In this document: in pieces, positions 1 to 45,379 of the stretch
How the letters are laid out: the number at the start of each line of letters is the position of its first letter
Position numbering within the stretch: position 1 is the first letter of the stretch
Assembly: GCF_030013595.1 (NCBI RefSeq)
Contig: NZ_CP122768.1
DNA: 64,000 bases
Reading direction: 5' to 3' (one strand)
DNA from: Escherichia coli
GTDB taxonomy: Bacteria > Pseudomonadota > Gammaproteobacteria > Enterobacterales > Enterobacteriaceae
Notes under the pieces: model-generated
What the model was told of the DNA's origin: nothing
Seen by the model: only the letters and a program-made list of their open reading frames with translations
Databases searched by the model: none
Made by a program: the position numbers and the translations under genes

Positions 1-837
1 TTCAATACCGTCTGCGCCGAGAGAAATAGAGAAATCGGGGTCATCTTTAACGGCCTGACCATTACTGTAAACGGGCTTTTTAATTCCTGCCGCGTTAGCA
101 ATGTCGAGTGAATAATTGAGGCGCTGAATGTTTGCATCAAGTTGATTTTTCGTTTTAATGCGGTCCTGAGCCAGTTTTTCTTTTTCAAACTGGGTTTTGA
201 TCTCCAGTTTATTACGGACGTTTTCTATCGACTCTTTCACCACCAACGCAGAGATATAATCGATATACCCGCTCAAAACGGTCTGCGCCTCTTCACTGGT
301 TGGCGCGGTAAAACTTAGCGTCCAGGAGGTATACAGTGACGGTTCATCTTTTTTCTTACTGGCATTGTCATCAACCGCTTTCATTTTTTCGCTCAATGCG
401 ACAATTGCGCGATGCAAATCCAGTTCGTCGATTTTCGCCTCTTTTAATTGGTCCATCACATAAGGTGTTGAGCGCAGGTACTCTTCCAGCAAGCTAACTG
501 ACTGAAACTTCTTGATAAACAGGTTAAATGCTTCTGTACGATCAATTTTGATATCCAGATCCAGCACACGAAGCTTAGTGAATGTTTTCTCAAGCGCCTG
601 CCACTGAACAGGTTCTGGAGGCGTGACAACCGCCGCGCTGGTCCATTTTTGCGGCAGGATGAAAGAGATCAGTAAACCTGCGCAGGCAAACGCAAAAACG
701 ACCGCCATGACCGTTTTTTTGGCCCGCCATAAAACTTCAATTAGATTAAGTAAATCAATTTCATTATTACTGGGCGACGCCAGAGGATACTCGGGAAAAT
801 GAGCGTCACTTCCCTGTTTAATATTCAGTGATGACAT
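1..837 (-). CDS. fepE: FepE / Wzz-like polysaccharide co-polymerase (ferric enterobactin transport protein FepE), 3' end outside window
   Basis: Minus-strand reading frame from ATG at 835-837 runs off the window start; translation begins MSSLNIKQGSDAHFPEYPLASP..., recognised as FepE. Not in ORF track because no stop is inside the window. Confidence 0.8.
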   Translation of the reverse strand, partial: MSSLNIKQGSDAHFPEYPLASPSNNEIDLLNLIEVLWRAKKTVMAVVFAFACAGLLISFILPQKWTSAAVVTPPEPVQWQALEKTFTKLRVLDLDIKIDRTEAFNLFIKKFQSVSLLEEYLRSTPYVMDQLKEAKIDELDLHRAIVALSEKMKAVDDNASKKKDEPSLYTSWTLSFTAPTSEEAQTVLSGYIDYISALVVKESIENVRNKLEIKTQFEKEKLAQDRIKTKNQLDANIQRLNYSLDIANAAGIKKPVYSNGQAVKDDPDFSISLGADGIE

Positions 838-1004
838 GGGGTATAACCTGAAAATGAGTCCAATAGGGGGAAATCTCCACGGCGCTCACTTTACCAGTTG
901 GTGAGAATTATCCGAAGCTGAAGTTTGTAAATTCCTTCCACTGAATGCAACATTCACTCTATTTAAGAGAAATATCCACCAAACTTATAAATTAAATAAA
1001 TGAT

Positions 1005-1037
1005 AAACCCATAATTATTTCCTGTAATTATGGGTTT
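1005..1037 (-). terminator. Hairpin downstream of entF (putative intrinsic terminator)
   Basis: Perfect 13-bp inverted repeat aaacccataatta / taattatgggttt with 7-nt loop, followed on the minus strand by a T-rich stretch. Confidence 0.5.
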
Positions 1038-1052
1038 ATCGATAATATTAAT

Positions 1053-4000
1053 TTACCTGTTTAGCGTAGCGCGAATAATCGGCCCAATTTTTTCAAACGC
1101 CCCTGGAGAGATAATATCCACATGCGCACAATCCTGACGATAGATATCCAGCTCCGCAATCCACGGCGACCAGGCGCGTTCGGGACTCATACCTTGCTGA
1201 AGCGTGCGTTCAGCAACAAACAGCGTCGCTTTACCGTCAAACGGTACGCTATGAGCAGTCGTCAGCAGGCGCACAGCATCAGCGTAGTTGCCTTCAATGG
1301 TGGTAAACAACTCCGTTGAAGTACTTCCCTGCTGTGCCGCCAGGAAGGCCTCGCGCTCGCGGTTAATCTCCGCCAGCACTTCCGGATCCAGACCATTAGC
1401 TTCTTTTTCCTGCCAGTTTTGCGTTTCTGGCGGCCAGGTATCCAGCAAGCCAAGAAATGCCACCTGTTCGCCACGGGCACGCAGTCGCGCCGCAATGCCC
1501 TGCGCCAGCGTACCGCCAAGTGAATAACCCAGCAGGTAATATGGGCCGTGCGGTTGTTGTTCAAGTAACGTTGCCAGATGCGCTTCGCAGACTTCATCCA
1601 GATTTGCCGCCGTCTGCATGGGGCCACTGGGGCGCGGCGACTGAATGCCGATAATCGACCATTGTGGATCGAGATAACGCGAGAGCACGCTGAACTGCCA
1701 GGCAAAACCGGAGGCCGGATGGAAACAAAACAGCGTCGGGCCATTACCTTCACGCAACGGCAGAATGGTTTCGAATCCCATGCGCCGGGAGCTGTCTTCT
1801 TCCCCATCAATAATCGTTGCCAGTTTAGCGACGGTTGACGCAACCATCACCTGCCCCGGCGTCACCTGACGGGCAAACTGCCGACTTAACTGCGCTGCCA
1901 GTTTCATTGCCAGTAGTGAATGACCGCCAAGCGCGAAGAAATCAGCATCGGCATCCTGCACGTCACAACCCAGCAACGACGAGAATGCCGCGGCGATAAT
2001 CGTTTCACTGCCCGCTTTCGGCGTACGCCCCGGTGCTTGTGCCTTCAGTTCAGGCAACGGTAAGGCTTTGCGATCCAGCTTGCCGTTGGCGCTAAGCGGC
2101 AACTGCGGAAGTTGCAGCAGAACCACGGGCACCATATGCGGTGGCAATGTTTCGCGCAACTGCGCCTGCAATGCAGTGGTATCCAGCGGCAGGCCTGATT
2201 GCGACACCAGATACCCAACCAACTGACGCGCATCGCCTCCCGTTGCGGCAGCCTGGTTAATGACGCAGGCGTGGGTCACGGCCTGTTCAACGTCCGGCAG
2301 CGCCTGCATCACGCGATCGATTTCGCCCAGTTCGATACGCTGCCCGCGAATTTTTAGCTGATCGTCACTGCGCCCGAGGTACTCCACCGCGCCGTTATCC
2401 AGCCAGCGGGCAACGTCTCCGGTACGGTACATCCGTTCACCAGGGGCAAAAGGATCGGCAATAAAGCGACTGGCGGTCAGATCGGGTCGTCCAAGATACC
2501 CCTGCGCCAGTTGAATACCGGTGAGATAGAGATCACCTGCCACACCCGGCGGCACCGGATGCATCATCGCATCAAGAATACGCAGGCCCGTATTCCACAC
2601 CGGATAACCAATCGGCACACTGCTGCCGCGCACCTGTGCCAGTTCCTCGCCAAAAGCCGGATACCAGCTGACATCTACCGCCGCTTCCGTCGGGCCATAT
2701 AGATTATGCAACGGCACGCTGGTTAACTGTTGCCATTCGCGGCATAAATCAGCGGGTAAGGCCTCACCACTACAGAAAACCTGTTTCAACGTCGCGCAAT
2801 TCTGACGAGCGGTTTGCGGAGTCAGCGGTGCAACAAATGCCGCCAGCATCGACGGCACAAAGTGCGTGGTCGTTACGCCATATTCGGCAAAGAATTGCTG
2901 CATAGCGAGCGGGTCGCGGTGCGCTTCCGGTTCAGCCATCACCAGTTTAGCCCCGGCAATAAACGGCCAGAAAAACTCCCACACCGAGACATCAAAACTG
3001 CACGGCGTTTTTTGGGCAACGATATCATCGCCTGTAAGCGGGTAGTGGTTTTGCATCCAAAGCAAGCGGTTAACGATAGCCGTCTGCCCGACCATTACCC
3101 CTTTTGGTCTGCCGGTGGAACCGGAGGTAAAGATGATATAAGCCGTGTGGTGCGGTTGTGAAAGTTGCAGCGGCGCACTGCCCTGCGGTGTAAGCGGGGC
3201 GTTATAGCAAAGGCTGGTTAAATCTGGAACATCGGCAAAGCGCGGCAGTTGATCGTCGGTGGTGATTAACAGCGACGGACGCGCATCTTCCAGCATCATT
3301 TTCAGGCGATCGTCCGGATAGCCGGTATCCAGCGGTAACCAGGCCGCACCTGTTTCAACAATCGCATGTAGTGCCAGAGTCAAAAAGACCGAGCGCGGTA
3401 GCGCCACCGCCACGCTGTCGCCTGGTTTAACGCCGCGCTCACGCAGCAGATTCGCCAGCGCCACCACCTGCTCGCGCATTTCCCGATAGCTGAACAGATA
3501 ACGCGCATCTGCCAGCGCCGGAGCATCCGGTGTTTTTGCCGCTTGTTCTGCCACCAGCGCGCTCAGCGTGGTTTCTGGAATCTCAACCTGAGTGGCGTTG
3601 ATCTGCGCCAGCTGCACATATTCACCTGGCAGCATAATATCGACATCGCCGCACAACAGCGCCGGATCCGCGGCGAACTGGGCAATCAGCATTTTCAGGC
3701 GTTCAGCATGTTGAATTAACGTTGGCTCATCGTAACGCTGTTTATTGGCGAGGATCTCAATACTCAAATCACCGTGTTCATCCGGGAACAGGGCCAGTTC
3801 AAGGTCATTAACCGGACCGGTTGCCAGGGTATGGGTTTGCGTCTGAACACCAGGAATATCCAGTTGGTAATCAAATACCTTGATATTGAGTACCGGACCG
3901 AACAGCGGTTCCTCTCCTGCCGCTCGCCCGCTGTCACGGACAATTTGTTCGGCATCGTAACGTTGATGGCGGCGCATTTTTTTCAGTTGTGCTGCCAGTC

Positions 4001-36136: not shown

Positions 36137-36442
36137 TCAATATACATTTTGCACCTTCGAGATAGTAATGGCTGTTACTGTAACATGGGTTACAAACAGC
36201 TTCATACCCAGAGCTACTGATGTATCAACACGATTCAACAATACCCGATATTTATTCCATGCCTCCAGCAACGATCTTTCTTCCTCCGTTGCGATTTCCA
36301 GATCTACAGCATCCTGCAGTGGCGCAATATACTCACTGAATTCCTGGATGTAGAACTGTGTGGTGACGGTCTTCCAGCCATTCGGCTCCTGCTGTATCGA
36401 AGCATACCAGGCTATTTCAATATCGCTATGCTGCGGCAGCAT
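36137..36442 (-). pseudogene. tfaX: Tail fibre assembly protein fragment (Tfa C-terminal region fused to unrelated sequence)
   Basis: 101-aa ORF; residues ...[39 protein letters not shown] match the C-terminal conserved block of the full Tfa at 37222..37806; the rest does not. Confidence 0.6.
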
Positions 36443-36498: not shown

Positions 36499-37167
36499 AT
36501 GGTGAAATTAATGAAAAAAAACACAGATGATGGGGCTAAAATTTACACACCACTTACCCTAAAGCTTTATGACTGGTGGGTTTTGGGAGTATCAAATCGG
36601 CTTGCATGGGGATGTCCTACAAAGGAACACCTTCTTCCACACTTTCTGGAACATTTAGGTAACAACCATCTGGATATTGGTGTTGGAACTGGGTTTTACC
36701 TTACTCACGTACCTGAGAGTAGTCTGATATCTTTAATGGATTTGAACGAAGCTAGCCTGAACGCGGCATCTACAAGGGCTGGGGAATCAAAAATTAAACA
36801 TAAAATTAGCCATGATGTTTTTGAACCTTATCCCGCGGCGTTACATGGTCAATTTGATTCCATTTCCATGTTTTACCTTCTTCACTGCCTGCCTGGAAAT
36901 ATATCTACAAAAAGCTGTGTAATACGCAATGCGGCGCAGGCCTTAACTGACGATGGAACTCTATACGGAGCCACAATTCTTGGCGATGGAGTTGTGCACA
37001 ATAGCTTCGGTCAAAAACTGATGCGCATTTACAATCAGAAAGGCATCTTTTCAAACACAAAAGATTCCGAAGAAGGCTTAACACATATACTCTCAGAGCA
37101 TTTCGAGAATGTTAAAACCAAGGTTCAAGGTACTGTAGTAATGTTTTCCGCTTCAGGGAAAAAATAG
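36499..37167 (+). CDS. ybcY: Class I SAM-dependent methyltransferase (YbcY-like prophage cargo)
   Basis: 222-aa ORF with motif DIGVGTGF (SAM-binding motif I); encoded opposite to the flanking tail-fibre genes; start codon uncertain. Confidence 0.65.
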   Translation: MVKLMKKNTDDGAKIYTPLTLKLYDWWVLGVSNRLAWGCPTKEHLLPHFLEHLGNNHLDIGVGTGFYLTHVPESSLISLMDLNEASLNAASTRAGESKIKHKISHDVFEPYPAALHGQFDSISMFYLLHCLPGNISTKSCVIRNAAQALTDDGTLYGATILGDGVVHNSFGQKLMRIYNQKGIFSNTKDSEEGLTHILSEHFENVKTKVQGTVVMFSASGKK

Positions 37168-37221: not shown

Positions 37222-37806
37222 TTACTCCCTGACAGGGTTCGTAGGCCACTCAATATCAGGTGCAGTTGATGTATCAACACGGTTCAGCAACACCCGATAC
37301 TTTTTCCAGGCTTCCAGCAACGAGGTTTCTCCCTCCGTTGCGATTTCCAGATCTGCAGCATCCTGAAGTGGCGCAATATGCTCACTGGCTACCTGCATCA
37401 GGCTGTTTTTTGTTTCTTCCGCCTCCCGGATCCGGAACAGTTTTTCTGCTTCTGCATCTTTCACCCAGGTTGTGCCGTTCCACTTCTGAAACTCCCCTTC
37501 CGGGGATAACCAGGTGACATTTTCCGGTAATGAGCCGAGTTCAGAAATAAATAACGCGTCGCCGGAAGCCACGTCATAGACGGTTTTACCCCGATGGTCT
37601 TCAACGAGATGCCACGATGCCTCATCACTGTTGAAAACAGCCACAAAGCCAGCCGGAATATCTGGCGGTGCAATATCGGTACTGTTTGCTGGCAGACCTG
37701 TATGAGGCGGAATATATGCGTCACCTTCACCAATAAATTCATTAGTTCCGGCCAGCAGATTATAAATTTTTATGGTCCGTGGTTGTTCACTCATTCTGAA
37801 TGCCAT
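37222..37806 (-). CDS. tfa: Tail fibre assembly protein (lambda Tfa-like)
   Basis: 194-aa [42 protein letters not shown]... with C-terminal conserved block; start overlaps stf stop. Confidence 0.9.
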
Positions 37807-40800
37807 TATGCAAGCCTCACAATATAGTTAAATGCGATGTTTTTGACGGTGTTTTCCGCGTTACCAGCAGCGTTAACGGTGATGGTGTGTCCATGTGAGC
37901 CAATCGCAACCGAGTGCGTATGAGCACCAATACCGACAGTATGTGCGTGTGCACCTGCGCTTGCAGCAGTGCCGGACAGTGAGTGGGTATGTGCGCCAGC
38001 AGATGATGTTGCATAGTTTTGATTATGCACAACAGACAATCTTGTTGATGCACTACCAGCACCGGAGTTAGCACTAGCCGTGTTCACGTTGGCTAGTGAG
38101 TGTGTGTGTGCTCCAGCCGAGTTTGTAGAGCCGCTCACACTGTGTGTATGTGCCCCGGTGTTATTCGTAGATTTAGTGCCGTAATCAAACGACGATGTGG
38201 TTTTCGTACCCAAATCCGTACTTGATGCGCTGGCGCTGTGGGTGTGCGATTTAATGCCGTCCTGTTCCTGAGACAATACGGCACGACCACTGGCGGGCTT
38301 GCCCTTAATCGTCCAGCCACGCATATCAGGGATCACGCCTGACGGATAAGCAACTGCAAGTTTCGGGTATGCAGATTTGTCAAAAGTCTGCCCCTGCATC
38401 AGGGCATAACCAGACGGAACGGTATCTGATGGCCACGGAATTGGTGCGCCAACTGGGTAGCTTTCTGGTGGAAGATTTTTCGAGGTATAAACTTCTGCCC
38501 AGCCTTCCTCAAAACCATAGCCATCTCTTGAGGAACGGTAGAACAGACCTCCATTTCTGTAATGCGCCTTCATCTGCAGGGTCCGGCAACTTCCGACTCC
38601 GGTATAGAAGTTAACCAGAATATAGCTGTCGCCAGAGCGGGTGACATTGTAAGCGCCTGATTCGGCATTCCAGGGAACGCCACCATCCGCATCGGCATAT
38701 GTATCCGTTGCCCTTCTGGCAAAAGCAGCCACATGCGCGGCGGTTAAAGTAATATCTTTTGAACCATCAAACTCAACCCCAGAAACCAGTCTTGGCGTTT
38801 GCAGCTTTGTTGCTGTCAATGCGTTACCGTTCAGACTTGCAGACAGTTTGGTTCCAATAACCAGTTCGCCGGTTGCGTTATCAATAGCAAACGGTCTTAA
38901 TGTATTCCAGCCACCATAAACATCACCTTGATTGGTAAGCAGCAGGTAAGTTTTAGCGCCATCATTACGCCATAATGCCCCATACTCCCCACCTATCATT
39001 CGAATCTGATTACCACCACGCGCTACAATTTCGTCTGTGGCAAAAAGTTTTTTGCACGACAAGTTATCGTTAACGATTAACGAATGGGACTCATAAAAAC
39101 CACGCCCACTCTTAAAATCAAGGATAACGTCCGCCGCGATACATTCAGTCGCTGGAATTGTTGCCCCAAACTTATAGGTCGTATCATTAACAACGAGATC
39201 AGCACCAGGTGCGGATATTGACAGGCCATCTTCGATAAACGCAAAAACAGGGAAAGCAGCGCCATCAACATAGAACACAGAGCGCAAATCATCGCCCTTA
39301 TTACTCATCATTATTGAGTGGATGGCTCGTTCATTGTTTTGATATTGCCAGAACATTCCATAAGCATAACGCCCCCTGTCAGTCCAGCCACCAGGCATAA
39401 CAAATCCGTTAAACTCGCAGTTATTCATCGGATCGCCTGCGGTTCGCGTTGCCGTGGTGATAATGACCCTTGATGCCAGTTCGCTTACTGAGCCAGCAGA
39501 ACGCATAACAACAACAGGGTAATATTTTCCAGATGTTGCACCTGCAGGAGCGTTAACCCGCACATAACGCATACCACGCTTATCAGCAAAGTCTGTTTTA
39601 CTGACCGCGTTAATGTTGTTCAGGAAGCGTCCCTTATCGGGTATATCAGCGCCGTTCTGGTCTTTCTGCAGACGTTTCTCTGCATTGTCATAGGCTGATT
39701 TTACTGACTTTGGCGTTGCCGCCAGCGTTTCAGACGTACTGTTGGTCGCACTGCTGAGCTGTACTATCCCCTTTTTCGTCGTACTTGCATCCTCAAGCGC
39801 CACGGCGGATGCAATATCCTCTGCCCGTTTAGCTGCTGTCTCGGCGCGCGTTGCCGCGGATTCCGCCGTACTTTTGCTCTGTGCTGCCGCTGTCGCACTG
39901 CCAGCAGCCTCTGTCGCCTTCGTGGATGCCGTCGTGGCGCTGCCCTTCGCTGCTGACGCCTGTCTGGTCGCCTCATCTTTTGAAGCAGACGCAGATGATG
40001 CCGATGACGCCGCCGAACTGGCGGACGATGCCGCTGCCGTTTTTGAGGATTCTGCGCTGGTTTCCGACGCTTTCGCGTTCGTTTCGGATGTCTTCGCTGC
40101 GGATGCAGACCTCGCTGCTGCGCTGGCCTGTTCAGCGGCTTCGCCAGCCTTCGTTGTGGCTGTTGAAGCGGACAATGCAGCGCTTTCTGCCGATTTTCCG
40201 GCGGCGGTGGCACTGGCTGAGGCCTGCCCGGCACTTGTTGACGCTGCACTGGCAGACGACGCAGCCGCTGTTTTTGAGCCTGCCGCAGCTGAGGCGCTCT
40301 GTCCCGCTGCCGTTTCAGAAGACCTGGCGTTCGTCTCGGACGTTTTTGCCGCCTTCGCGGAATTTCCTGCCGCCGTTGCCGAGGAAGCTGCACTACTGGC
40401 GCTCGAGGCTGCGCTCGTTTCTGATGATTTTGCAGCCTCTTTTGAGGCCGCCGCATCCCGGGCCGAGGTCGCAGCTTCTGATGCCTTCGTGGTCGCGGTG
40501 GATGCAGATGTGGCTGCTGATTGTTGTGACGCTGAAGCATTCGTTTCTGACGTTTTCGCCGCACCGGCACTGGTGGCCGCCGCGCTTTTTGAGGACTCTG
40601 CAGCGGCAGCACTTTTTGATGCTTCAGTGGCCTTTGTTGATGCCGTTCCTGCGCTGGAAGACGCTGACTGAGCCGACGAAGCGGCCTGTCCGGCTGACGT
40701 GCTGGCTGCGCGTGCTGAGCCTGCAGCATCAGTCGCATGGGTTGCCGCCTCACGGGCAGATGTGCCGGCATCGCCGGCTGACTTCTTCGCGGCTGCCGTG

Positions 40801-41168
40801 TTCTGTGCCACCACGGACGCGTTACGCGCCACCTCTTCCACCATCAGCTCAAAACGGCGCAGTGCCTCCGGACGGGCATCATCCTCCGTCATGGCACCGA
40901 GAAAATCATTCAGCGTACCGGGTCGGGAATCTTCATACACTGTGATAGTCCCGGCATGTGACGGCGGGAATCCTTCCACCAACAGAATAACGCTGTACTG
41001 ACCGTACTCAACGTCCATACTGTAACGCCCGGCTTCATCCGGATTTTCTGAGGCCAGCGTGTTCACCACCACCGTGGTGCTGTTACGTTTTGCTTTCAGC
41101 TGGATTGTGCAGTTCTGTACCGGTTTTCCTGTGCCGTCTTTCAGTACACCTGAAATCTTTACTGCCAT
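37806..41168 (-). CDS. stf: Side tail fibre protein (lambda Stf-like), with long Ala/Ser-rich region and C-terminal HxH repeats
   Basis: ORF 37806..41174; begins (MNM)[31 protein letters not shown]...; about 480 aa of A/S/T-rich low complexity; C-terminus has repeated GAHTHS motifs. Confidence 0.9.
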
Positions 41169-41232: not shown

Positions 41233-41832
41233 TCAGAATTTATAACCGACACCCACGATGAACCCGTCAGTGCGCCAGTCACCGCTGCCGGAGCCTTCAT
41301 AAGCGACGTCAACGGCCACGGATTCGGTCGGGTTAAACTGCACGCCAGCTCCCCACGCCAGAGACGTGTTGCTGTGGCGACCGTCATCACTTCCGGTCAG
41401 CACATCGTGCGTTTTCCCCTTGTTGTCAGTTACGCGGATATAATCTCCGGAGAAAGTCGACACACGGCTGTAAGCCATACCCGCCATCGCATACGCGCTG
41501 AACCATTCATTCACGCGCACAGACGGCCCCGCCATCACGCTGAACCAGCGGTTACGCACGGAATCTTCATGCCAGCGGGTATCGCTGTAATGCGTTTTTT
41601 GCTCATCTTCAGCGTTGGTATAACTGAATGACGTAATCAGCCCCAGCGTGTCCGTAAACTCATAACGGTATTTCACGTTAATCCCGTTCAGATTATCGCT
41701 GCCGGGAGCGTTCGTACGGGCATGAAGATACCCTGCGCTCAGTGTGGCCTGCTGCTCAGACGCCCATGCAGGCGCACCGGATACGGCCAGACAGATGGCT
41801 GCGGACAAAATGGCTGCACAAACTTTACGCAT
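41233..41832 (-). CDS. lom: Lom outer-membrane protein (Ail/Lom family; prophage moron)
   Basis: 199-aa ORF with signal peptide MRKVCAAILSAAICLAVSGAPAWA and beta-barrel-like C-terminus ending GYKF. Confidence 0.9.
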   Translation of the reverse strand: MRKVCAAILSAAICLAVSGAPAWASEQQATLSAGYLHARTNAPGSDNLNGINVKYRYEFTDTLGLITSFSYTNAEDEQKTHYSDTRWHEDSVRNRWFSVMAGPSVRVNEWFSAYAMAGMAYSRVSTFSGDYIRVTDNKGKTHDVLTGSDDGRHSNTSLAWGAGVQFNPTESVAVDVAYEGSGSGDWRTDGFIVGVGYKF

Positions 41833-41899
41833 AATTACCTCTCGCTTTTCTGCAATAAAAAAGGCGCCATTTCTGGCGCCCGTATATGGGTTATAAAAT

Positions 41900-44800
41900 T
41901 CAGCTGATACTGATGCCTGCGGTGGCTTTCTTCATCACCACAACCAGCAAATCGCTGATACTTGCTGTGGGATACCAGTTATTTACCAGCCATGCTGACA
42001 CCGAAAACTCCAGTGTCATGTGACCGTGACCGGCAGGCATATCAATAACACCACTGTAAATCAGCGTATTATCCAGCGCGGTACGGTTATAAATTTCAGC
42101 ACCGTTTTTCCGTACTATCAGACGGCATGAGGAGTAAATATCAGTATGCTCTTTCTCATGTTTAGCGCCGCTGAATGCCACCGCCGGAATAACAATCTGC
42201 CGGTCAAACGGCTGATCGTCATAAACCCTGACGGTGATGGTCCCTGATGGCCACCGTTCCGGTGCACGGGAGTCCCGGGGGAAAGCTTTGCCCACTGTTT
42301 TAACGAGATCGCCTTCAATCTGGTTCGCGGACAGTTTTCCCAGAACCCGACAGTTCTCGTTAATCGTGACGTTGTTGAGCGTCCCGGAGTTCGCATTCAC
42401 GTTACCGCTGATATCGGCATTTTTCGCCGTCAGCCGCCCGTCCGGTGTCAGGGAAAATGCCGGTGGATTTCCGCCGCTGGTAATGGTGGGAGCCGTCAGG
42501 CGTTTCAGGAACACGTCGTTCATGAATATCTGATCGCCCTGACCAACAAACATCGGCTTTGTGTTGCCATTCGCAGGATTAATCATCGCAATCCGGTCAG
42601 CAGCCAGAAGCACCTGACTCTGCATACCTGCTGGCGTATTCTCAATACCGGCTCCGATACCCGCAATATAAAGGCGTCCGTCCTTCATCTGCTGCAGTTT
42701 CACGGCCCACATGCTGTTCAGGTTATTATTTGTATCAACCTGAACTTTCTGTATCTGCTGGATTGCCGCGCTCTGATTTTCCAGTTTCTTATTGACGGTC
42801 TGTGTGATTTCATTGCTGACATCCGTAATGGACGTCCTGATTTCAGCCAGGTCAGGCGCAAGCTGATCGTTATCAATCTGCGTCCACAGCTCCTGAGCCA
42901 GATGGGTTTTCCCTATCTCGCCTTTGAAAAAATCCAGATAGCCGGATGCGTCATCACTCGGCTGACCGACAGCCTCCACGAATGCCGATTTGCCAACAGT
43001 GTTCACACTGCGAACGTAAAAATAATAATCATGGCCCGGCTTAATATTGATACTGGCAGCTATCCAGTACAGCGCCGTACCAAGATAGCGCGCTGTGGTT
43101 TCAACCTGCCTGATATCCGCAATCCGCTTTTCCGAGAACCAGAACTCAAACTGTACCGTCGGATCATAAACGGCAAGATGCGGCGTGGCGGTTATCTGAA
43201 AATAGCCCGGCGTCAGCTCAATCCGCGACGGTGCTGCCGGTGCGGCAATCCGGAACGATACCGATGCCGGATCGCCCTGCTGTCCCCACGCATTTACCGC
43301 CCGGACTGTCAGCCTGTAGTTCCCCAGCGCCAGCTGCCTGAAGCGGTATGTGGTTTCCGTCGTCCGGGCCGTGCTGACCAGCCGCTCACTGCCGTCATCG
43401 GCGGCCACGGTCAGGCGAAGCATAAAGCTCACACCCTTCACCACCTTCGGCGTGTCCCAGCGCGCCAGCACCTGATACTCCCCACTGTCTGCGGTGACTT
43501 CTGCGGTCAGGTGCTGCACCGCTGGCGGCGTGACACCATTCACCGTGCCGCTCTGGTCGCCGTCAAAGTGCGCCCCGTTATCCACGATGGCTTCTTTCTC
43601 CGGTACATGCTGCACGGCAGTGATGGCATACGTGCCGTCATCGTTCTCACGGATACTCACACAGCGGAACAGGCGCTGGCGCAACGTCGGCAGCTTCAGC
43701 CCCCACACGCTGTATTCTGCAACGCCGTCAGGAACACGGCTCACTTTCACCTTCACACCGTCGGTGACGGACTGAACCTCCACGCTGACCGGATTGCCAC
43801 TTCCGTCAACCAGGCTTATCAGCGTGGTACCGGAGGATGGCAGCGTGATTTCACGGTCGAGCGTCAGCGTCCGGGTCTGGCTGTTCACCGCCAGCACGCG
43901 CCCGCCGGTGCTGATACCGGCATAGTCATCATCGCAGATTTCAATGACATCGCCCGGCACATGGCGAAGCCCTTCTGCGCCCACGCTGAAATCCACGGTC
44001 TGCGTTTCCAGCAGTTCCGTTTTAATCAGCCACAGCCCGGCGCGGTGTGCCTGCCCCCGGCTGGTACAGCCAAAGGCATCCATCTTCGTAACATTACGAC
44101 CGTAACGGGCAATGGCCTGCGTATCTTCAACAAGCTCTGTCGCCGTCTCCCAGCCGTTATCCGGGTCAATCCAGTTCACCTCAACGGCATTATGGCGGTC
44201 CTTCAGGGCGCTGAAGCTGTAGCGGAACGGCGCGCCATCATCCGGCATCACCACATTACTGCGGTTATAGGTCCACACCTTATCCGACGGTCGGTCCTGC
44301 ACGAACGTCAGCGTCTGCCCGTTCCATACCGGCATACAGCGCATCGCCGAGCAGAAATCGCTGAGCACATCCCACGCCTTACGTTGTGTGGTCAGCCAGG
44401 CATTACAGGTGATGCGCGGCTCCGTGCCGCCAAAACCGTCCGGCACCGACTGGTCGCAGTACTGGCCGATGACATACAGCGCCCATTTATCCACATCTGC
44501 CGCACCAAGACGTTTCCCCATGCCGTAGCGCGGATGGGTCAGCATATCCCACAGACACCAGGCCATGTTGTTGCTGTATGCTGGCTTAAACGTTCCATCC
44601 CAGATACCGCTGTATTGCCGCGTCTGCGGGTTATAGTTCGACGGCACCTGCAGAATGCGCCCGCGCAGATGATAATTACGGCTCACCTGCTGGCTGCCGA
44701 ACTGCTCCGAGTCCACCTGCACGCCGACCAGTGCCGTGTTCGGGTAGCACTGTTTCACATCTATAATTTCGGTGTATGACGACCAGAGCGTTTTGTTCTG

Positions 44801-45379
44801 CAGCTGGTCTGTGGTGCTGTCCGGCGTCATCCTGCGCATCCGGATACTGAACGGGCGCGGCGGCAGGTTATCCACCACCACCGAGGCCAGATACTGCGAG
44901 GTGGTTTTGCCCTTAATGGTGATGTCTTTTTCCGTCACCCAGCCACCGTTACGTTGTATCTGAACCAGCAGGCGGACTTCCGATGGATTCCTGTCACCCT
45001 TTGAGGTGGTTTCCACCAGTGCCTGCACACCGAAGGTAAAGCGCAGTCGGTCGATGTTTGCCGACGTGATGGCGCGGGTGATCGGCGTGTCGTATTTCAC
45101 TTCCGTACCCAGCACCGTCTCGGAGCCGGAGGATTCAAATCCCTCCGGCGGAGTCTGCTCCTGCTCACCAGCCCGGAACACCACCGTGACACCGGCGATG
45201 TTGGTATTCCCCTCACTGTCCAGCACCGGCGTACTGTTCAGCAGCACGCTTTTTAATCCATCCACCGGACCTTCAATCGGCCCTTCACTGATGGCATCAA
45301 TCACACTCAGCAACTGCGTGGATTTCAGGTTGTCCTTCGCTTCGCGCGGGGTATGCCCCTTACTGCTGCCTTTACCCAT
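41900..45379 (-). CDS. J: Tail tip / host-specificity protein J (central tail fibre)
   Basis: 1159-aa [50 protein letters not shown]... Confidence 0.95.

Follow-up and report, generated by a model that had tools for sequence, protein, structure and literature searches.

The closest described systems to the J protein analysed here are A8 and 1A2, two lambda gpJ chimeras in which the C-termini of natural E. coli phage gpJ variants were fused to lambda gpJ so that OmpC replaces LamB as the receptor (Brödel et al., Nature 2024, 632:877, PMC11338833). According to the source data of that study, delivery to wild-type MG1655, which carries LamB and the K-12 OmpC, reached 97.7% with lambda-WT, 95.7% with A8 and 5.2% with 1A2, and in MG1655 lamB ompC supplied with K-12 OmpC the corresponding values were 1.9%, 95.2% and 2% (PMC11338833); A8 accepts K-12 OmpC, whereas 1A2 does not. 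Among 23 OmpC alleles provided in the lamB ompC background, 20 allowed 1A2 to deliver to 76-99% of cells, G17 (EDL933) included, while delivery was 2% or less with alleles G1 (K-12), G2 and G40, and wild-type lambda J gave 2-3% or less in this background (PMC11338833). Since its delivery varies by OmpC allele in lamB ompC cells, 1A2 entry is OmpC-allele dependent, independent of LamB and not rescued by OmpF. In the source data of Extended Data Fig. 2 of the same paper, panel C (OmpC-EDL933) repeats the A8 and 1A2 values of panel B (OmpC-MG1655), with different Lambda-WT values; this duplication is at odds with Fig. 1b and with what the paper says, and it probably arose by copying and pasting in the source file, so that the support for the EDL933-OmpC result comes from Fig. 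1b and Extended Data Figs 1 and 8. Structures are available as well, PDB 9wca being the closed state of A8 gpJ, and 9wcb, entitled 'Open state of A8 gpJ 713 central tail fiber with OmpC G17 from E. coli EDL933', showing A8 bound to OmpC.

Other J types have been described to varying depth. For lambda, four receptor-contact loops are known in the receptor-binding domain (RBD), and binding to LamB is accompanied by a rearrangement of the fibre, including refolding of a shaft segment (PMC11101478). Phage 21 natively uses LamB, and one J mutation adds OmpC (PMC11336670). The J protein of phage 434 belongs to the same domain family and binds OmpC. Against this background we compared the J gene of a lambdoid prophage in the window, by which we mean the whole 64,000-nt stretch of E. 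coli DNA that was analysed. It encodes an intact lambda-family J whose distal end is a recombinational mosaic.

An intact J gene with a mosaic distal end

The J gene is a single ATG-to-TGA frame of 1159 aa with no internal stops, and a Pfam scan recovered the complete lambda gpJ architecture, all six families (PF13550, PF24801, PF24421, PF24489, PF09327 and PF12421) scoring far above their cut-offs (Table 1). As in a lambda-type gpJ/TipJ, the hub, two FNIII/Ig domains, a tail-tip fibre domain and a C-terminal Ig-like RBD are present in one protein. The gene sits in a tail module of lambda order, H-M-L-K-I-J-lom-stf-tfa, as judged from the ORF order, the Pfam content of the neighbours and the way RefSeq annotates an E. 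coli locus that is 97% identical. The neighbouring ORFs, from H (tape measure), M, L, K and I to lom, stf and tfa, are all full length, with strong Pfam matches in those that were scanned (I, L, lom, stf and tfa); in a close E. coli relative, RefSeq places the label 'Ail/Lom family' at the lom position. In the annotations of phages 21 and 434, a terminator occupies the position that the hairpin has 3' of window J. The side tail fibre Stf is a second host-recognition component of the same tail as J.

Table 1. Features of the J gene and its neighbours, with positions in the window and residues (aa) or nucleotides (nt) of J
Feature	Position	Strand	Part of J	Basis or remark
J gene (central tail fibre / tip attachment protein; gpJ/TipJ)	41900..45379	-	whole	intact, 1159 aa; ORF list and translation
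FNIII-A_GpJ			aa 86-207	Pfam
Phage-tail_3			aa 330-498	Pfam
Ig_J			aa 610-714	Pfam
Ig_J_second			aa 716-818	Pfam
Replaced alpha-helical-shaft segment	~42620..42979	-		27 aa longer than lambda's; common to phage 21 and PPompW
Phage_Tail_Tip PF09327, central straight fibre (beta-prism)	42380..42766	-	aa 872-1000	E 9e-31; largely lambda-like
Counterpart of the foreign segment in the 1A2 gpJ chimera	41903..42403	-	aa ~993-1159	frameshift-tolerant alignment to 1A2 DNA
Non-lambda specificity block	41900..42379	-	nt 3001-3480	52-60% identical to lambda, 58-73% to phage 21, 97-99% to PPompW_EH1992
Ig_GpJ_C PF12421, the RBD by Pfam	41903..42295	-	aa 1029-1159	E 2.4e-37
Terminator-like hairpin	41862..41881	-		directly after the J stop codon; consensus scan and sequence
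lom (Ail/Lom outer-membrane protein)	41233..41832	-		PF06316, E 1e-125; follows J, as it does in lambda
Side tail fibre Stf, 1122 aa	37806..41174	-		Pfam phage_tail_N, Gp34_trimer, Collar; stfR in a relative
Tail fibre assembly protein Tfa	37222..37806	-		PF02413, E 1e-43

Compared with the lambda reference (NC_001416, locus L001), window J is 83% identical overall (BLASTP). Residues 1-800 are 92-100% identical per 40-aa bin and about 98% in all, in agreement with the initial annotation, which had described the N-terminal and central parts as lambda-like. In bins of the same size, identity falls to 10-55% over residues 801-920, returns to 78-95% over residues 921-1000, and is 31-50% over residues 1001-1159. 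The RBD (aa ~1010-1159) is 42% identical to that of lambda over 150 aa, and its loop segments differ from those of the LamB-type sequence (lambda J aa 982-1132) and carry indels, so the suspicion that the distal end does not resemble the LamB-binding sequence was correct and the C-terminal domain is far from essentially identical to that of lambda. The extent of the specificity segment, which had been put at roughly 250 residues, was overestimated, although the distal divergence itself is real: the final 250 aa are 57% identical to lambda J, the strongly diverged part covers only about 150-160 residues, and the flagged interval opens with ~90 residues of conserved central fibre. A second replaced block, in the alpha-helical shaft (a domain name taken from PMC11101478), lies just upstream of that interval.

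These blocks were also compared by nucleotide identity in 120-nt bins of J against lambda, phage 21 and PPompW_EH1992. Over nucleotides 1-2400 identity to lambda is 90-99%; over nucleotides 2401-2760 it is 27-62%, but 91-94% with phage 21 and 87-98% with PPompW. Identity to PPompW_EH1992 J is 87-99% over nucleotides 2161-3480, with 97-99% in the RBD bins. The J protein of phage 21, at 1160 aa, is of the same length class, and its gene is about 87-99% identical to window J over nucleotides 1-3000, shaft included, before identity drops to 58-73% from nucleotide 3001 to the end. The extra length of the shaft appears in the BLASTP alignment as a 27-residue gap in lambda at aa ~836-862 of window J. 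When J was searched against phage genomes with megablast, many lambda-like phages matched nucleotides 1-3100 and then stopped, and full-length matches were found in a smaller phage set (PhiR55_1, vB_EcoS-640R1, PhiR46_1 and others). Window J combines a hub and two FNIII/Ig domains of lambda type with a phage 21/PPompW-type shaft and a 1A2/PPompW-type RBD, and so adds a further case of module swapping in the distal part of J.

The receptor-binding domain and its relatives

A phmmer search of PDB sequences with window J returned gpJ chains only; 'A8 gpJ 713' (9wca/9wcb) ranked first with E 1e-105, ahead of lambda J with 3e-84. The final 180 aa were modelled with AlphaFold at a mean pLDDT of 74, with values of 78-96 across most of the RBD core, and the model's top four matches among PDB structures (9wca, 9wcb, 8xck and 8xcj; E 1e-16 to 1e-18) were all gpJ RBDs. 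An alignment of six RBD types (window, PPompW, A8, phage 21, 434 and lambda) contained 52 invariant framework columns. The RBD retains the lambda gpJ fold, as the Pfam Ig_GpJ_C match, the identity of the top four structural matches and the invariant framework all indicate. Window J and lambda J (PDB 8xcj/8xck) have both whole-protein architecture and RBD fold in common, and presumably the trigger mechanism too; lambda J differs in its receptor (LamB), in the sequence of its RBD and in having the shorter shaft.

The differences and indels among the six RBD types cluster in four segments, located after FPR, around [12 protein letters not shown], around NRTALDNT and around [11 protein letters not shown]. 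These four segments plausibly correspond to the lambda receptor-contact loops L1-L4, a correspondence drawn from the clustering of indels and variation, the lambda loops being shown in figures rather than by residue number in the papers used.

The comparison with other J tips, which the initial annotation had proposed for HK97, N15, phi80 and 434, separated near relatives from distant ones. The RBD of A8, which represents a J type found in Stx1a phages, has the same fold and the same receptor protein (OmpC) and is the best PDB match in sequence and fold, but it is 59% identical to that of window J and carries indels in two loops, and the two sequences are not of one type. Phage 21 J is 73% identical over a 180-residue alignment and 64.5% over the RBD alone. 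The J protein of 434 is ~50% identical over the final 180 aa, with different loops. BLASTP detected no significant similarity between the window RBD and the J proteins of HK97, N15 and phi80 (E 0.39 or higher), and the RBD therefore resembles neither the FhuA-type tips of phi80 and N15 nor the HK97 tip at its C-terminus. The J protein of Gifsy-1 (OmpC/OmpX/BtuB) was set aside, its C-terminus being only 18% identical to that of lambda.

Much closer matches were found to PPompW and to 1A2. The window RBD is identical at 149/150 positions (99.3%) to that of J from PPompW_EH1992 (LC567832), a prophage of the O157 type. The 1A2 DNA, taken from the supplement of PMC11338833, is a recoded sequence in machine-read PDF text with indels, and it was compared with window J by frameshift-tolerant protein-to-DNA alignment, which left 13 codons not comparable; in this machine-read text, 198 of the 205 readable codons specify the same residue. 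Of the seven mismatches, three fall in the part that comes from lambda, three (V/F, R/C and F/L) stand beside text-recognition damage and could be real differences, and one is clean. This last, the sole clear difference in the foreign segment, is S1157 in window J against T in 1A2 and PPompW: PPompW J ends in 'GITIS', as does 1A2, and window J, A8 and phage 21 end in 'GISIS'. Plain tblastn and blastn searches of window J against the 1A2 text gave 46-70% identity, values that are misleading and were discarded, the text indels shifting the frame and the segment being recoded. The initial annotation had suggested a non-lambda specificity, and this is now supported by the RBD being a separate, already characterised type. 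Window J is essentially identical to 1A2 and PPompW in its RBD and has the same Ig_GpJ_C fold. Elsewhere the three proteins differ: the PPompW hub is 60-88% identical to the lambda-like hub of window J, and 1A2 carries the lambda shaft and prism in place of the longer phage 21/PPompW-type shaft.

Receptor assignment and proposed mechanism

The receptor of window J is very probably OmpC rather than LamB, recognised in an allele-dependent manner such that EDL933-like and most natural alleles would be accepted and K-12 OmpC would not. We base this assignment on the near-identity of the RBD to those of 1A2 and PPompW and not on its 50-65% similarity to other types, which is not enough to read a receptor, because phage 21 at 64.5% uses LamB and 434 at ~50% uses OmpC. 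A receptor assignment from similarity to phage 21 or A8 alone was likewise rejected, since at 60-65% identity receptors differ (LamB vs OmpC). The OmpC-dependent, LamB-independent entry is literature on 1A2, and window J would be expected to behave in the same way. Two points nevertheless speak against OmpC: the shaft of window J differs from that of 1A2 and is longer, which could affect triggering, and few changes flip the receptor within the J family, as in phage 21, where a single J mutation suffices to gain OmpC (PMC11336670). The ompC allele of the host genome lies outside the window.

That the RBD still uses LamB despite its divergence, as lambda and wild-type phage 21 do, appears to us very improbable. 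Phage 21, with an RBD 64.5% identical and with the shaft and prism in common with window J, does have LamB as its native receptor, and fold and framework residues are common to the lambda and window RBDs; yet the near-identical 1A2 works in lamB-deleted cells given a suitable OmpC, and it fails in wild-type MG1655, whose LamB suffices for 98% delivery by wild-type lambda particles. A different porin as receptor, or a wider or dual range such as OmpC plus OmpF, brought about by the shaft context or S1157, also seems improbable. Such a range would fit the gain of OmpF or OmpC by lambda and phage 21 J after few mutations and their conformational heterogeneity (PMC11336670), as well as the shaft segment, which is unlike that of the tested 1A2 chimera. 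However, with three OmpC alleles 1A2 delivered to 2% or less of OmpF+ cells, so OmpF is not used by a 1A2-type RBD, and S1157, lying in a C-terminal 'GISIS' tail that A8 and phage 21 also have, is unlikely to set specificity. There is a slim chance that the particular mosaic of window J (lambda hub, phage 21-type long shaft, 1A2-type RBD with S1157) might differ from 1A2 in receptor range, for example by a shifted set of accepted OmpC alleles or a second porin; shaft type and RBD would then co-determine triggering.

With OmpC as the preferred receptor, entry can be pictured by analogy with lambda. The bottom loops of the RBD trimer would enter the trimeric porin from its extracellular side, OmpC binding would spread the trimer, and the change would pass through prism and shaft until the tail tip opens. 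Fibre opening on OmpC is also implied by the existence of both open and closed A8 structures (9wcb, 9wca), and we infer that window J is triggered as lambda J is. The 1122-aa Stf would probably contribute a reversible adsorption step of its own, like the Stf of Ur-lambda (PMC11338833).

Phage host records offer a further comparison. PhiR55_1, PhiR46_1 and PhiR47_1 (records PV340565-PV340577), which carry the window RBD type, have E. coli C or ECOR13 as recorded hosts and not K-12; K-12 MG1655 is the recorded host of several PhiR phages whose J tips are of other kinds, and other J types occur on ECOR13 and E. coli C as well. These records fit, weakly, a K-12 OmpC that is non-permissive for this type. 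Literature searches returned no receptor data for the PhiR* or mEp phages carrying it, and a 2026 receptor-prediction preprint was uninformative here, as it concerns Drexlerviridae gpJ and excluded lambda J from its alignments.

For a prophage such as this one, the sequence would allow the receptor to be predicted as OmpC instead of LamB, with the K-12 form of OmpC probably excluded. Such a prediction is of use in picking indicator strains and in considering how host range and superinfection play out across E. coli lineages, and a near-identical copy of the RBD is already in use as an OmpC-targeting delivery module.

Prevalence and genomic surroundings

Prevalence was assessed in complete E. 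coli genomes with the 431 nt coding for the RBD (41900-42330) as query, at a coverage of at least 80%. RBD-coding DNA was present in 3349/5426 genomes (about 62%), with a median of 2 copies and a maximum of 10 per genome, and the best copy was at least 95% identical in 2323 records. Copies of this type are annotated as 'phage attachment tail tip protein J', and within the phage collection PPompW prophages and many Stx1a/Stx2a-converting phages carry the type. The window RBD type is the commonest J tip in E. coli prophages, and its specificity type is already known, being widespread, annotated, and characterised at the family level by experiment and structure.

The lambdoid prophage (~36100-64000) adjoins ompT/envY/ybcH/nfrAB/cus, which corresponds to the K-12 DLP12 position, and its tail module is complete here. 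J could be an inert relic of a defective prophage that forms no infectious particle, a reading compatible with OmpC as the specificity and one that we regard as unlikely, if less so than the receptor alternatives above. It would agree with the location of the prophage at the DLP12 end of the chromosome, a site that in K-12 holds a defective prophage, and with the number of RBD copies per E. coli genome, many of which are presumably in decayed prophages. The state of the genes points the other way, J being full length without stops and H, M, L, K, I, lom, stf and tfa being full length too, in that part of the prophage that falls within the window.

Several minor observations concern the flanks of the tail module. 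The prophage end carries a ybcY-like methyltransferase gene (36499-37167) and a tfaX-like tail-fibre-assembly remnant (36137-36442). The stf gene, on the minus strand, is compositionally mosaic, with a GC content of 0.60-0.63 at 39750-40999 and of 0.44-0.49 around 38750-39500, a pattern that suggests exchanged distal modules. Outside the prophage, the nfrB homologue (25785-28022, plus strand) contains an in-frame stop at codon 251 (RRAVTAL*ADGDG), which divides it into ORF pieces of 250 aa and 485 aa in the same frame, and it is probably a pseudogene; nfrB is needed for infection by phage N4. The neighbouring nfrA (27988-30981) looks intact.
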